A stretch of DNA of 64,000 nt from an uncultured Nitrososphaerota archaeon. Lineage in GTDB: Archaea > Thermoproteota > Nitrososphaeria > Nitrososphaerales > CADDZS01. Numbering within the stretch: the stretch's first letter is position 1; every line of letters begins with the position of its first letter. The stretch lies in contig CAWCYI010000006.1 in assembly GCA_963799845.1 (NCBI GenBank), positions 832,001-896,000 on the forward strand, written 5' to 3'. The notes under the pieces are model-generated. The model had not been told where the DNA came from. It made no database searches and was given only the letters and a program-made list of their open reading frames with translations. Made by a program: the position numbers and the translations under genes. Positions 7,658-14,216 of the stretch are shown here, one piece after another.

Positions 7658-7918
7658 CTACCTGTAAACCTTGTCGTGATGTTCATAATCTTCCAAGACA
7701 ACGCTCTTTCTTGGTTCATCTATGGAATACGTCAGGACATAATTTCCAAAATGAACTCTTCTCATCCCCACCAAAGGATAATGGAGGGGTTTGAACCTAT
7801 GCGGGTCTTCGAGTATCTCATTGATTTTTTCCGTAATCGTTTTCATTTGGTCGGGATTTCGCTTGGCCAATTTCTTGAAGATTCTGTCAACGTGCTCTCT
7901 TACTTCCAAAACATACAT
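7658..7918 (-). CDS. RelE/ParE-family toxin
   Basis: EILEDPHRFKPL...MRRVHFGNYVLTYSI...DYEHHDKVY. Confidence 0.85.
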   Translation of the reverse strand: MYVLEVREHVDRIFKKLAKRNPDQMKTITEKINEILEDPHRFKPLHYPLVGMRRVHFGNYVLTYSIDEPRKSVVLEDYEHHDKVYR

Positions 7919-8161
7919 TTAATTCAAACCGTATCTTTTCTTGAAGTCTTTGACGCTGCCCACTCTGATTATTGGTTCCTTCCGAATCTTCTTTAGTTTC
8001 TTCACGTATTCGGGCCTAATATTTGACTCGAGGATAATTTCCTTGTACAGTTTTGCCATTTTGTTTATCGCATGTGACTTGTCCTTCAAGTCGTATTGAG
8101 CCTTGAGGATATTGAGGACGGTGTTTGCTTCCTTCTCTATATCGACGATGGCTTTGACCAT
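7919..8161 (-). CDS. DUF2683-like antitoxin
   Basis: MVKAIVDI...VLNILKAQYDLKDKS.AI...IRPEYVKKL; directly upstream of the toxin. Confidence 0.8.
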   Translation of the reverse strand: MVKAIVDIEKEANTVLNILKAQYDLKDKSHAINKMAKLYKEIILESNIRPEYVKKLKKIRKEPIIRVGSVKDFKKRYGLN

Positions 8162-8204
8162 GTTAATACTATATTAATATTGGAATATAATCTAATCGCA
8201 ATTC

Positions 8205-8620
8205 GTTTAGCCTCGGAACGACCACCGAGAGCATGACCGAAAAAAGTAGATAAAACAGCAATAAAACCGTCGGCACGTTGAGTTTTGTATTCAAGACTTT
8301 ATTTCGTGTCCGACACTCGTTCATCTGTCGCTCTTTGCGGAGTACATCGTTATTACTTCTTGCCTTGTTGTTCTTTGCTCGTCAAACAGAAGTGTGTTTT
8401 AGGGTCGGGTCCAGTCAGTCTAGGGAAACAAAAGGCAAACACTATTGGCGAAGTTGAGCTTTTAGCTTGTAATCTTCCCTTTGAAGGAAGTAGAATCTGT
8501 GAAGGGGGAAAAGCTGTAGACCGTAAAGCAAGCGCCTTTACGCTAGGTCCAGTCATCCCGCTGTGCCTTTAGTATCTGCTCTCCAATTCCTCAAACTATC
8601 TGAAACCCGATTTCCCTCCA
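8205..8620 (-). ncRNA. Candidate large structured RNA downstream of the DIP1984-like gene
   Basis: Non-coding interval with nested complementary pairs 8227-33/8577-83, 8269-77/8305-14, 8360-72/8427-38, 8457-63/8509-15, 8474-78/8486-90, 8522-28/8536-42. Confidence 0.55.
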
Positions 8621-8627
8621 CACTCCA

Positions 8628-9101
8628 TCAGATGGAAATCTCTAGCTCCACAGACTGATTTGCCTGTTGAATCAGCGCGTCCAGCCCGTTTTTACGACTC
8701 TGATAGTCTTCAAGCATTGAAAGGAGCGTCAAGGTATCTTTTTGCTTGAGCATTTTGACATCTTCCTTGGAGCGCCTTTCGCGATCAAAAAATCCTCTAC
8801 GCTCTATATGCATCATGTCTTTGAGCTGATCTACCGTGGATCGAAGATTGGCGAGCTCGACAATGTTTTCAAAGAGTGTTTTCCCGTTTGGTAGAGTTGC
8901 ATTCATGTTTGCTTTTGCGATTCCAACTTTTATCTTTGTCAATTTGTTGACGACTTCCTTGATTTTGACAGTCAGTGAGTCGAAGTCGAACTCTGGCTTT
9001 TCGTCTTCTGGATACTCTAGGTTTCGGTTTCTGAGTCCTATCAGCTGGACGAGCTGAGACTGCAGCGATTTCTTCAACGCTAGCGCTTCGTATAATTTCA
9101 T
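8628..9101 (-). CDS. DIP1984-like (septicolysin-like) coiled-coil protein, 157 aa
   Basis: Start MKLYEALALKKSLQ and end LDALIQQAN fit the MKL.EAL...IQ..N family pattern; likely start at 9101. Confidence 0.7.
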   Translation of the reverse strand: MKLYEALALKKSLQSQLVQLIGLRNRNLEYPEDEKPEFDFDSLTVKIKEVVNKLTKIKVGIAKANMNATLPNGKTLFENIVELANLRSTVDQLKDMMHIERRGFFDRERRSKEDVKMLKQKDTLTLLSMLEDYQSRKNGLDALIQQANQSVELEISI

Positions 9102-9290
9102 GACCTCGTTTTCGCCTTGGGAAATTGCAGTACTATTACTGTAATCATAAGCGTTGTCGTCTGTAAAAGCTGACCAGCGGTCTGAGATTCTTGTCTGAGG
9201 TGCCGGCGGATAATTCATCTGGCAGAGCTACAATTCATGTCCCTCGGCATGCTTATATGTAAGACTACTTATTTTACTTATTTTGCGGAC

Positions 9291-9515
9291 ATGCCGAACG
9301 TCACTTTGGCAGTGCCAGACGAACTGCACAGGATCATGAAGAATCATCCCGAGATCAAGTGGAGTGAAATCGCCCGTCACGCTATGAAAGAGTACGCCGC
9401 TCACTTGGAGGTCATCGACGAGATCACCAACAAAAGCAAGTTCACCGAGAACGATGCGCTGGAAGTTGGTTCGGCGGTGAACAAGATCTCGCTGCGAGGT
9501 ACAAACGGGCCATGA
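9291..9515 (+). CDS. Antitoxin (RHH-like)
   Basis: [29 protein letters not shown], typical archaeal antitoxin upstream of a PIN gene. Confidence 0.8.
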
Positions 9516-9536
9516 GAAAGAGAAGGTCAAACCCCG

Positions 9537-9959
9537 TTGAAACTCGTGGTCGACACTAATGTTTTGCTCGGCTCGTTGATAAGGAACTCCACAACCAGAT
9601 TGTTGCTCATGAATCCCGATCATGAGTTTTCCATCCCAGAATTTGCTCTGCAGGAAGTGGCAAAATATTCAGACGTGATAAGCTCCAAATCTGGGCTGGC
9701 GAAGAAAGAAATCAAACTGTTGATAGACACGCTAGCAACGAACTTGAAGCTGGTCCCGCTGGAAGAATTCGTGGAAGGTTTTGGTCAAGCGGAGGAGGCA
9801 CTGAATAATATCGACGAAAAGGATATCCCATTCCTCGCACTTGCACTGAGCATCAAATGCGACGGCATCTGGAGCAACGACAAACACTTGAAGGAACAGA
9901 GACTCGTAAAAGTTTGGAACACTCTTGAAATCGTTTCCCTCTTCCGGGATGATAAGTGA
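9537..9959 (+). CDS. PIN-domain toxin
   Basis: LVVDTNVL, DEKDIPFLALAL, IWSNDKHL. Confidence 0.9.
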   Translation: MKLVVDTNVLLGSLIRNSTTRLLLMNPDHEFSIPEFALQEVAKYSDVISSKSGLAKKEIKLLIDTLATNLKLVPLEEFVEGFGQAEEALNNIDEKDIPFLALALSIKCDGIWSNDKHLKEQRLVKVWNTLEIVSLFRDDK

Positions 9960-11755: not shown

Positions 11756-12931
11756 CAGTAGATGCGAATCAAGTATGCTTTTCTCGTATGTTAAATGACC
11801 CACTCATAATCAGACCGATGAGAGAGAGTTTCATTTGTATTACTTCCACCGATTCGTTCGGATGGAGCAGCTCTTGGTTGGCATTGTACATGACCCACGA
11901 ATTGTAGACAAGACATGCAAAGAGATAGTAGAACAATCTTACCACGTAGTTCCTTGATGTTGTTTTTATCAGGAATTGATTTGACATTCGGTAGCTTGTC
12001 TCTATGCCCCAGCGGTTCTTGAATAGCCTTAGGATTGTTTCAGCTTTGTAGGGAAGATTTGTTGCAAACAGGTACTTGTAATCCTTTGTCTTGTCATATG
12101 CCACTACAACTTCAAACGAGGCTTGTTCAGATTCCCTCCTCCTGTGTCCGCTAGTAGTGTACGTGAACCTCCTACCCTGCCAGAGCCTCATTTTCTTTGT
12201 CTTGTAGGTTGGAGCCATTCGCACGATGTACTTGAGTCCAGATTCCTCAAGAAATCTGAGTAGGTTTGTGTGAAAGAATCCGCCGTCAAAAACCAGATAG
12301 CGAATTCTTATTTTCAGCTCTTCTTGCAGTTTTCGCACAATTTGTGTGGTAGACGAGACAAGTTCCGAGCCTGATGCTAATCCTGTAACAGCTACGATCA
12401 GTCTTTCTCCATCTGCTAGAACAGAAGCTGTAAGGTACTTGAATGAATAATTGCTTCCGTCCCTGTGCATGGTTCCAATGACCATCGGTGTTTCTTCATG
12501 ATTACCGTAGTACATGACATCATGCAGATCCAAAGCGACAGGGACTGGTACGCGTAATTTTCTTCTTTTTCTAAGATCCTTCACATTCCCGTCTATCAAA
12601 TTATCGAAGATTTGTTTGACTCTCGCTTCTCTTTGTGATTTAATGTACGAAAGAAGAGTTTCTGCAGTCGGTGATTCGCCTAGAGATTTCGAAACACCTT
12701 CAGCAAATCCATTTACCAAGCTCGCCGAGATGAGCAGGTTTAGGTGTTCATTCTTGGAATAAATCGCTCTCTCCTTCAGCTCATATGTCAGCAGTCCTGA
12801 GATGTTTTTCTTTACGAATTCATACAGCTTTCTCGAATTGAACCTCAATTGGAACGTCGGAAACAAGCCCTAAGGCGGGCTGGCCATAATAATTGCGGCC
12901 GGAAATCGCCTAGATTCGTTCGCATCTACTG
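11756..12931 (-). mobile_element. ISH3-type (IS4-like) insertion sequence, 1176 bp
   Basis: 13-bp perfect TIR cagtagatgcgaa; 4-bp TSD TGAA at 11752-55 and 12932-35. Confidence 0.9.
11769..12866 (-). CDS. DDE transposase (ISH3/IS4-like)
   Basis: VALDLH, LVFDGGF, RWGIETSYR. Confidence 0.9.
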   Translation of the reverse strand: MFPTFQLRFNSRKLYEFVKKNISGLLTYELKERAIYSKNEHLNLLISASLVNGFAEGVSKSLGESPTAETLLSYIKSQREARVKQIFDNLIDGNVKDLRKRRKLRVPVPVALDLHDVMYYGNHEETPMVIGTMHRDGSNYSFKYLTASVLADGERLIVAVTGLASGSELVSSTTQIVRKLQEELKIRIRYLVFDGGFFHTNLLRFLEESGLKYIVRMAPTYKTKKMRLWQGRRFTYTTSGHRRRESEQASFEVVVAYDKTKDYKYLFATNLPYKAETILRLFKNRWGIETSYRMSNQFLIKTTSRNYVVRLFYYLFACLVYNSWVMYNANQELLHPNESVEVIQMKLSLIGLIMSGSFNIREKHT

Positions 12932-14216
12932 TGAAGATCGTGGGCTTCTCCACGACCATAGCAGGGCTTCCTGTTTCAACCACCATGCTTGCTCTGATGT
13001 GTGGAATGCTGTTGAAGTATTCCAAGAGAGTATAGGCAAGAGTGTCCGCAGGCGTTAATTCCCTATGCACCATAGGTACTCCTCCTTCCTTTTCGATGTT
13101 TATCGCGGAGTTCAAGTCTCTGTCCATTACGAGACCACAGTATGTGCATTCATAGATTCGATCCGCAAGAGTGACCTGATTCCTTGCGTTGCAACGCGAG
13201 CATTTCTGGGTCGTGGGAATGAAGCTATCCACTTTCCTCGGCGTTTGTGCCTTCTTTTCAAGCGCACTGATTATTCCGCCGAGCGAGGTGTTCAAGATTC
13301 TTCTTCCCCAGATCCGCTGCCAGGCTTTGATTGTATCATCCTGATAGCAAATCGTTGTGAACTGTTTTGTGAGTCCGCGCACAAGCTTGTTCTGGATATC
13401 CTTTTTGACGCTCGTCGTCCCGTCATAGGCTTTATCCAGTTTCGTTTTTGCCTTCCACCAGTTGTGGCTGTGGTATTTCTTTCTGCTTAGCTTCCTGCAC
13501 AGCTTCTTCATATGGTCTGTTATTGGCACTTCGTAGTTGATTCTGATCCCGCTTGATAGCGTGAGCTGGTTTTTGATTCCCAAGTCTATGCCTACGCTTT
13601 TTGATGGCTGTTCTTCTTCCCGATGCTTCGGAACTACTTTAGTCTGGTATGTCGTCACATGTAGATAGTAGTCTCCATGCTTTCGGACCAGAAGAGCGGA
13701 TGCAAGATCGGCACTCGCAGGAAGCTGAAAAATCCCTCTTGTTTTGAGTCCCTGCTTGATTCCCTGAATGTGGACGTAGTGCTTATCGAAGATCCAATAC
13801 GTCATCCCTTGCTGCTTGAGTGGGATGGAACAGATTTCACTTTTGAATTTGAGCGCACCAACTTTGTGTCCGCTCTTCTTCAGCCTGGAAAGTGATCTGA
13901 TGTTGTCTCTCATCCTGTCGATGAGTTCCTGTTTCATCTGGGATGATAGGCATCGGATTTCTCTTGTTTCGAAACCATTCTTTGCCTTGACACGGACCGC
14001 GCCCAACCTGTAGTCGGCCTCGAATATGTTTCCGTTTGCAAGCACATGATTGTAGAACCACTTGGCTTCGAGAAATAATCTGTCGAGATGTTTGTGTGTC
14101 TTGTCGCTGAGATGGGAAGTATCTATTTTCAGCTCGTATTGCTTACAGGTTTGAGTCCTCCGTCTCTCCTTAGTTTTCTTGAGCGAGCCGCGTATGGCGT
14201 CATTCTTGAGAGACAT
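12870..14216 (-). CDS. tnpB: TnpB RNA-guided endonuclease; C-terminus reads into the ISH3
   Basis: VGIDLGIK, YQDD, TTQKCSRC..YECTYCG..DRDLNSAINI. Confidence 0.9.
   Translation of the reverse strand: MSLKNDAIRGSLKKTKERRRTQTCKQYELKIDTSHLSDKTHKHLDRLFLEAKWFYNHVLANGNIFEADYRLGAVRVKAKNGFETREIRCLSSQMKQELIDRMRDNIRSLSRLKKSGHKVGALKFKSEICSIPLKQQGMTYWIFDKHYVHIQGIKQGLKTRGIFQLPASADLASALLVRKHGDYYLHVTTYQTKVVPKHREEEQPSKSVGIDLGIKNQLTLSSGIRINYEVPITDHMKKLCRKLSRKKYHSHNWWKAKTKLDKAYDGTTSVKKDIQNKLVRGLTKQFTTICYQDDTIKAWQRIWGRRILNTSLGGIISALEKKAQTPRKVDSFIPTTQKCSRCNARNQVTLADRIYECTYCGLVMDRDLNSAINIEKEGGVPMVHRELTPADTLAYTLLEYFNSIPHIRASMVVETGSPAMVVEKPTIFTVDANESRRFPAAIIMASPP

Follow-up and report, generated by a model that had tools for sequence, protein, structure and literature searches.

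Does the interval behind a small archaeal gene of the DIP1984-like family encode a structured RNA, and if it does, does that RNA belong with the gene? The locus lies in a 64-kilobase (kb) stretch from an uncultured Nitrososphaerota archaeon (contig CAWCYI010000006.1), which we call the window; all positions are window coordinates unless a locus label is given. The gene (8628..9101, minus strand) encodes a DUF6847 protein of 157 amino acids (aa) that is predicted to be all-helical, and a gap of 466 base pairs (bp; 8162-8627, on the downstream side on the minus strand) separates its stop codon from the next gene, DUF2683. An earlier note, made from the sequence alone, proposed that a highly structured RNA of about 400 nucleotides (nt) occupies this gap. 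Comparative analysis identifies here a conserved structured RNA element of about 216 nt (8401..8617, minus strand), supported by a covariance model, fold z-scores and covariation, which forms the 3' partner of the gene. The element is real and new as an RNA family, and it is very probably a genuine, gene-linked structured RNA.

A conserved RNA element directly behind the DUF6847 gene

Scans of metagenome and genome contigs returned 28 homologous loci. Two are cut at the gene, leaving 26 with downstream DNA, 22 from metagenomes and four from metagenome-assembled genomes (MAGs); the four come from named records, all of them Bathyarchaeota/Bathyarchaeia MAGs. The element stands behind the gene in every one of the 26 loci, beginning 28 to 50 nt and ending 213 to 256 nt after the stop codon, and in the window it begins 11 nt past the DUF6847 stop codon. 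An all-against-all BLASTN comparison of the 700 nt behind the stop codon recovers a block of about 200 nt, from about +35 to +240, that is common to all Bathyarchaeia-type loci at 72-93% identity. The window itself matches two loci (L032 and L022) over +75..+175. It matches all 26 loci in a 23-nt core, which is found as a 91-96% identical 23-nt match in 22 of them and sits within longer, less identical matches in the other four. This identity spans clades whose proteins share about 54%. Over ten pairwise comparisons the nucleotide identity of the RNA is 72-86%, versus 68-85% for the coding sequence, and conservation is as strong in the RNA as in the gene.

The folding signal defines how much of the gap belongs to the RNA. 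When compared with shuffled sequences, the whole gap has a fold z of -2.96 (minus strand) and -2.39 (plus strand). The signal divides sharply, with z = -3.89 for 8401-8616 versus -0.55 for 8162-8400. Because the structure is confined to the gene-proximal half of the gap, the candidate RNA is about 216 nt long and not about 400. The earlier proposal of a conserved, covarying RNA 3' of the gene therefore holds in all 26 loci, whereas its size does not, and folding exceeds that of shuffles in the gap as a whole and in the element but not in the remainder.

The element is non-coding. No reading frame is open across all 21 distinct sequences, and most frames carry 1-9 stops. The claim that the gap lacks a credible open reading frame (ORF) is borne out in the window, where neither of the two longest ORFs in 8162-8627 has a Pfam match, and both results speak against a decayed gene. 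The element also corresponds to no known Rfam family. Rfam 15 gives no match at the gathering score anywhere in the window, only chance-level matches to small nucleolar and long non-coding RNAs in the gap (E = 2.6-7.5), and nothing at E <= 0.1 in the two Bathyarchaeia-type loci searched (L013 and L017). ARAGORN finds no transfer RNA or transfer-messenger RNA genes in the window.

A covariance model (R1) that was built only from the 21 Bathyarchaeia-type loci aligns over its entire length with 8393-8623 of the window (minus strand; 24.7 bits, E = 3.5e-6), and this is the sole credible match in the 4.6-megabase genome (E = 2.1e-4). A second model with 57 base pairs (R2) gives a local match at 8458-8550 (34.7 bits, E = 9.7e-8). 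The reverse strand scores 17.8 bits versus 244 bits for the forward strand. One 151-nt contig of a relative from public DNA runs covers only the 5' part of the element (8522-8673), without the partner strands.

Secondary structure and covariation

With default settings RNAalifold predicts 30 base pairs, and with RIBOSUM scoring it predicts a 57-pair model that agrees with the minimum-free-energy (MFE) folds of individual sequences. Pair counts were made on model-guided alignments. In the 30-pair model 97.6% of alignment cells are paired, 6 pairs show double changes, and slid controls reach only 31-45%; none of 500 shuffles attains the observed fraction of paired cells. The 57-pair model has 92.2% of cells paired and compensatory double changes in 14 of its pairs (0 of 500 shuffles), versus 30-43% paired cells and at most 8 such pairs in the slid controls. 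Homologues do carry a covarying structure behind the gene. Because the sequences are related and the structure was derived from them, these counts support the structure but fall short of proving it.

The 5' and 3' ends of the RNA form a long closing stem (P1-P4) that carries two arms, a hairpin (H4) and a long P5-P6 arm. The closing stem begins with P1 (GGGG/CCCC), continues past a 3-nt purine bulge on the 5' side into P2 (UCGGG/CCCGA), and ends with the irregular P3 and P4 helices. Every Bathyarchaeia-type sequence has GGGG/CCCC in P1, where 98.8-98.9% of cells are paired. P2 varies in a compensatory series: UCGGG/CCCGA in 15-16 sequences, UCAGG/CCUGA in 6, and UCGAAU/AUUCGA in one locus (L006). 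The equivalents of P3 and P4 in the relatives (helices 3 and 4) contain 5 pairs with double changes.

Hairpin H4 is extended and almost invariant (AGCGU-RRAG-GCGCU, within the core CCUAGCGURRAGGCGCUYGC), and its pairs are 100% paired in 22-23 sequences. The long arm consists of P5, P5a, P5b (GAUC/GAUC) and P6. P5 (helix 6) is GAUCUU/AAGAUC or GAUCCU/AGGAUC in relatives, AGCUUU/AAAGCU in L006 and AGCUUUU/AAAAGCU in the window. P6 (helix 8) is the best covarying helix, changing between CUGCGC/GCGCAG, CUCCGC/GCGGAG, CUUCGC/GCGAAG and GUGCGU/ACGCAG. Four of its six pairs have double changes, with one pair occurring as GC, UA and CG and another as CG and UA. G-U pairs exist only on the strand of the gene, as a U-G pair of H4 in 21-22 sequences and a U-G pair of P3 in 5-6. 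The element is strand-specific and covarying.

The copy in the window

The window copy has the features by which we define the new DUF6847 3' RNA: P1 and P2, the H4 core and the P5-P6 arm, directly 3' of the gene and on the same strand. The 5' strand of P1 (AGGG, 8614..8617, minus strand) pairs with CCCU at 8401-8404, and that of P2 (UCGGGU, 8605..8610, minus strand) pairs with ACCCGA at 8405-8410. The purine bulge between them is AAA in the window and AGA in the relatives. These two helices close the RNA, in place of the helix suggested originally (8227-33/8577-83). The letters of that helix are complementary, but 8227-33 lies outside the conserved element, and the models instead pair 8564-8576 with 8425-8437. 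The latter strands form the long irregular stem equivalent to P3 and P4 (5' strand 8564..8576, minus strand). This inverted repeat (I2) spans 13 nt with 85% complementarity and is present in the MFE folds.

The near-invariant 23-nt core (GGACCUAGCGUAAAGGCGCUUGC, 8526..8548, minus strand) contains H4, in which AGCGU at 8540-8544 pairs with GCGCU at 8531-8535 around an AAAG loop and includes the U-G pair (minus strand). The earlier note had drawn a stem at 8522-28/8536-42. It overlaps this invariant hairpin, but its register is possible only in the window's own clade. At the base of the central arm, the P5 5' strand (AGCUUUU, 8509..8515, minus strand) pairs with AAAAGCU at 8457-8463. The tip of the arm is the P6 hairpin (8474..8490, minus strand), with CUUCC at 8486-8490 paired to GGAAG at 8474-8478 and a UUCAAAG loop. 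Both helices had been proposed from the window sequence at exactly these positions, and both coincide with conserved, covarying elements. Two further proposed stems, 8360-72/8427-38 and 8269-77/8305-14, lie partly or wholly outside the conserved element and find no comparative support.

A repeated 10-mer pointed out in the same note (GGTCCAGTCA) does occur exactly twice in the 64 kb, at 8408 and 8546, where chance expects 0.07 copies and none of 100 shuffles reaches two. On the minus strand, copy 1 (8546-8555) lies just 5' of H4 and copy 2 (UGACUGGACC, 8408..8417) runs into the 3' strand of P2. Alignments of the relatives keep only a shorter RAACC at both places.

The last codons of the gene (8631-8640) can also pair with the 5' strand of P1 and P2 (8609-8618) over 10 nt at 90% complementarity. 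If this pairing (I3) forms in the window, the RNA would close in competition with translation of the end of the ORF. Bathyarchaeia-type loci do not show the pairing.

By eye, we also considered parts of the RNA as a K-turn, as tRNA-like or as an anti-Shine-Dalgarno sequence, and rejected these readings since the motifs misfit or are unconserved.

Limits of the cassette and a putative promoter

Homology between loci of unrelated context extends from about -72/-73 relative to the ATG as far as the RNA 3' end, which defines a cassette of about 800 bp. At its 5' edge the window has a putative archaeal TATA-like box (CTTTTACAG, 9161..9169, minus strand) about -60 to -68 from the ATG. It aligns under a YTTAWWRG box that 18 Bathyarchaeia-type loci carry at -56 to -62. 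Of 21 loci, 19 have a TATA-like box before the ATG, and none of 22 loci has one within 70 nt before the RNA. As judged by the known archaeal TATA consensus, on which reading the box as a promoter leans, the YTTAWWRG sequence would be an archaeal TATA element. Because a box precedes the gene and none precedes the RNA, a single promoter with co-transcription is the most economical model, and the RNA is probably co-transcribed with the gene.

Linkage to the gene, rarity and decayed copies

All four gene-bearing MAGs have a single DUF6847 gene with the RNA directly behind it, and the RNA is absent from 150 other genomes of the same class. Twelve other genomes of the window's own family also contain no credible match to it. 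A weak R1 match in one genome (G003, 19.1 bits) was discarded as spurious after inspection revealed no similarity. The gene is correspondingly rare: it occurs in 4 of 401 genomes of the class of the Bathyarchaeia-type MAGs and in 1 of 401 in the sample of the window's phylum, and in the 12 family relatives it was not found save for a 31-residue remnant in G011. The RNA is inherited, moved and lost together with the gene.

Several incomplete copies were encountered. The G011 remnant (L003; G011:C123, 1500-1720) is a decayed cassette that retains the last 31 DUF6847 codons and the H4 core beside a VapB/PIN pair. In one MAG a stop-ridden remnant of the C-terminal part of the gene is followed by a degraded RNA (L041; G454:C48:1-338) that scores 126 bits versus about 215 for the intact copy; the intact cassette is about 3 kb away and inverted relative to it. 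In another MAG (L042; G456:C62:11161-11326) only the 3' half of the RNA is left, beside an AbrB/RelE-like pair. The genome of the window has an 83-nt partial copy of 8352-8432, 78% identical and about 205 kb away (G000:C6:1045004-1045086; L002 1501-1583). It comprises the last ~30 nt of the RNA and ~50 nt beyond, upstream of a small cupin-like ORF and with no DUF6847 gene nearby. This copy may be the remnant of a lost cassette or a recombination junction.

The DUF6847 protein

The identification of the gene as DIP1984-like is confirmed by a match to Pfam PF20935 (DUF6847) over model positions 2-141 of 141 (E = 4.6e-14, 53 bits versus a cut-off of 27). Alignment with 20 homologues fixes its start at the ATG at 9101. 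The gene call of the source is a longer, 196-aa ORF from an upstream ATG at 9218 (8628-9218). NCBIfam NF038048, the DIP1984 subfamily, matches over its full length (1-149) at 65.1 bits (E = 7.6e-18), below its curated cut-off of 70, and the window protein is a relative just outside this curated subfamily. Apart from DUF6847, Pfam gives only a sub-threshold MnmE_helical match. Within the window's own clade the proteins (P0002-P0011) are 65-90% identical, and archaeal branches otherwise share about 54%. The PF20935 family as a whole comprises about 280 clusters at 50% identity.

Structural comparisons lead back to the same family. There is a full-length but weak match to the structure of DIP1984 from Corynebacterium diphtheriae (PDB 3KDQ, E = 0.0016). 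An AlphaFold2 model has five helices at low confidence (predicted local distance difference test score 65.7), and Foldseek returns only 3KDQ (E = 0.055) and generic coiled coils. The nearest ESM Atlas clusters are 90-100% PF20935, with nothing beyond the family itself. PHROGs gives only weak matches of unknown function, viral contigs contain neither the DUF6847 protein nor the RNA core pattern, and a plasmid search with one family protein (P0042) has no match. In the literature searched there is no functional study of DIP1984 proteins, whose name turned up once, incidentally, and the texts report no RNA partner for them.

Neighbouring genes and surroundings

The gene had been described as lying between two toxin-antitoxin modules, and its neighbours are indeed of this type. 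Downstream is a DUF2683 and ParE-type toxin-antitoxin pair (7658..8161, minus strand; PF10884, E = 8.4e-9 and PF05016, E = 4.3e-9). Divergent from the gene are a small ORF and then a PIN_2 toxin-like gene (9237..9959, plus strand; PF10130, E = 3.2e-25); the small ORF, of 92 aa, has no Pfam family. The remainder of the gap outside the conserved RNA (8162..8400, minus strand) is matched in none of the relatives. Immediately ahead of the DUF2683 start it contains an AT-rich stretch that is likely to be the promoter of the ParE operon. Also outside the conserved RNA, at 8296, one base of a T run in the window is missing from contigs of two public DNA runs, which is probably an assembly or strain difference.

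Across loci the neighbouring genes vary and are rich in PIN, ParE, HicAB, UPF0175 and DUF433 families. In the 19 loci scanned, toxin-antitoxin families flank at least 9, and there is no constant neighbour besides the DUF6847-RNA pair. An ORF of 255-259 aa without a Pfam family lies upstream of the DUF6847 gene on the same strand in five loci and is absent elsewhere; it ends 660-690 nt before the stop codon of the gene in four of them (L009, L020, L023, L024) and farther upstream in L011. In the window, an IS-type (insertion sequence) transposase ORF of 365 aa and a 448-aa ORF are found 3-5 kb away (11769-14216). The latter, judged from its translation only, has a zinc-ribbon C-terminus typical of TnpB/OrfB. 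Because of these two ORFs, the region around the cassette looks like a variable, mobile-element-rich island.

A possible two-part cassette and its alternatives

What, then, might the RNA do? We suggest that promoter, DUF6847 gene and RNA constitute a two-part protein-RNA cassette in which the RNA is a cognate partner made from the same transcript, a statement to which we assign, as a whole, a probability of roughly 0.5. A single archaeal promoter would drive both the 157-aa helical protein gene and the ~216-nt RNA domain behind it. The RNA would form the 3' end region of the transcript of the gene, would then perhaps be processed, and would be either bound by the protein or hold the protein in check. 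Such restraint would resemble that exerted by the antitoxin RNA in type III toxin-antitoxin or abortive-infection pairs. The patchy spread of the cassette and its home among PIN, ParE and HicAB modules would fit a partner role of this kind. That the RNA works through direct binding to the DUF6847 protein is more tentative, and we consider it somewhat less likely than not.

Several observations weigh against a protein-RNA cassette. The protein has no known RNA-binding or nuclease domain in Pfam, PDB and Foldseek searches, and PADLOC has no match at the locus. Model R2 missed L006 and in the window aligned with the central part alone, and the outer stem of the window differs from that of its relatives. 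The set of 21 distinct but related sequences is shallow (effective number 1.3-1.6), and because it also served to derive the structure, the covariation statistics are optimistic. Four bacterial DIP1984 loci lack a credible match to the archaeal model. Two departures from type III systems belong here as well: the RNA is 3' rather than 5' of its gene, and it is one multi-helix domain of ~200 nt rather than a tandem array of ~36-nt repeats.

The RNA could instead be a purely cis-acting 3' untranslated region that serves to stabilize, terminate or autoregulate the DUF6847 mRNA, without existing separately or acting as a partner. It starts 11-50 nt past the stop codon on the same strand with no TATA-like box of its own, homology of the cassette stops at its 3' end, and the I3 pairing would couple its folding to translation in the window. 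However, I3 is absent from the Bathyarchaeia-type sequences, the alignments contain no U-tract after the element, and a ~200-nt multi-helix fold with a 23-nt near-invariant core, conserved like coding sequence, exceeds what a terminator or stabilizer needs. We regard this alternative as unlikely. An independent small-RNA gene that has its own promoter and trans targets and merely shares a mobile cassette with DUF6847 is improbable. The gene-less fragments of the 3' part (L042 and L002) and the A-rich stretches that some loci have between stop codon and RNA could be read in this way, but each full-length copy adjoins an intact gene or a gene remnant, no solo full copy exists in the 150 and 12 genomes examined, and promoter-like boxes are missing before the RNA.

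The same fragments, as isolated remnants of the 3' part at other junctions, would also be compatible with an element that acts as DNA and marks where a mobile cassette ends, such as a site of recombination or attachment or a single-strand hairpin. The element is the exact 3' boundary of homology between contexts, and bacterial members of the family occur in small plasmid modules, with modules flanked by XerC/XerD sites described for such plasmids in passages of one report (PMC3358182). This explanation is quite improbable given that the conserved G-U pairs would become A-C mismatches on the other strand or in hairpins derived from duplex DNA. Furthermore, known recombinase sites do not resemble an element of 200 nt with 57 conserved pairs, the two ends of the cassette share no terminal repeats, direct or inverted, and no recombinase gene is a constant neighbour. 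Least probable by far is a decayed or very small protein-coding gene. Chance ORFs of 95 aa (plus strand) and 67 aa (minus strand) do cross the element in the window, and frame +2 is open in 2 of the 21 relatives, but the interrupted frames and missing Pfam matches described above are accompanied by substitutions that are compensatory in helices and not periodic in three bases.

Comparison with known systems

The two-part cassette can be compared with relatives of its protein and with known RNAs that are tied to a single gene. DIP1984 of C. diphtheriae (3KDQ) and bacterial proteins labelled 'septicolysin' belong to the same family, PF20935, with a full-length alignment to 3KDQ, whereas the window protein is from a distant archaeal branch that matches this structure weakly. 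The label 'septicolysin' or pore-forming toxin, used for proteins of Acinetobacter plasmids, comes from annotation only, and one report states in the relevant passage that the exact role is unknown (PMC3358182). In all four bacterial plasmid DIP1984 loci inspected, 268-441 nt without an annotated gene lie behind the gene, which is a lead only, since the plasmid gene tables are incomplete. Even with filters off, R1 finds nothing credible in these loci (its best match has 8.7 bits and is not behind the gene), and the fold z of the four 3' regions is mixed (-2.47, -0.81, -2.82 and -1.33). The ~290-nt 3' region in Acinetobacter accompanies the gene in about 400 plasmids. A 65-nt stretch of it (L047 1933-1997) is 75% identical to one in a Psychrobacter plasmid (L050 1976-2040), where a hairpin changes its stem from AUCC/GGAU to CCCC/GGGG (two double changes) and keeps the loop CUUACYUMCACAAC. 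An Enterococcus plasmid locus (L049 1041-1271, minus strand) has an unrelated T-box leader upstream of a peptide ABC transporter gene (86.8 bits versus a gathering score of 93).

It is conceivable, if rather unlikely, that DIP1984/DUF6847 proteins at large, including those on Acinetobacter, Psychrobacter and Enterococcus plasmids, are the protein halves of unrecognized protein-RNA modules with lineage-specific 3' RNAs that act as type-III-like toxin-antitoxin, plasmid-maintenance or anti-virus systems. If this family-wide reading is true, then the archaeal cassette is the first case in which the RNA partner is visible by covariation. Apart from this wider reading, the gene-linked RNA itself offers an initial clue to the function of a widespread, uncharacterized family whose structure has been solved and whose members on plasmids are often mislabelled 'septicolysin'.

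Two kinds of gene-associated RNA share features with the new element. Y RNAs, as in rsr-yrlA modules, have 5' and 3' ends that form a long bulged closing stem and are encoded beside the gene of their binding protein, Ro60. The DUF6847 3' RNA resembles them in both respects, but it matches no Rfam Y RNA family and its protein is not a Ro/TROVE protein. Gene-associated RNA motifs in Rfam, for example the abiF-associated RNA, are similar in that comparative genomics ties a conserved RNA to one protein family of unknown or defence function. Those motifs lie mostly 5' of their genes and are bacterial, whereas the element described here is 3', archaeal and without a match in Rfam 15, and it represents a new class of structured RNA in archaea that have been little studied.

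The closest parallel for how the pair might work is to type III toxin-antitoxin systems (ToxIN, CptIN and TenpIN). Each consists of a short transcription unit for a small protein and a structured non-coding RNA next to it, and the units are patchy, mobile and located among toxin-antitoxin and defence genes. The cassette shares the small protein, the adjacent structured RNA and the patchy, mobile spread among toxin-antitoxin genes. In addition to the differences in RNA position and form given above, its protein is a DUF6847 protein, predicted to be all-helical, and not a ToxN/AbiQ-type endoribonuclease. The only tandem array in 8100-8700 is a 27-nt A-rich, low-scoring row outside the element. 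Because membership in type III fails on gene order, repeat array and toxin fold, this would be a different kind of protein-RNA pair. If the RNA is indeed the partner of the protein, then protein-RNA toxin-antitoxin or defence modules would be extended to a protein fold, an RNA architecture and a gene order that are all new, in a cassette of ~800 bp that is small enough for a direct test by expression in a laboratory host.

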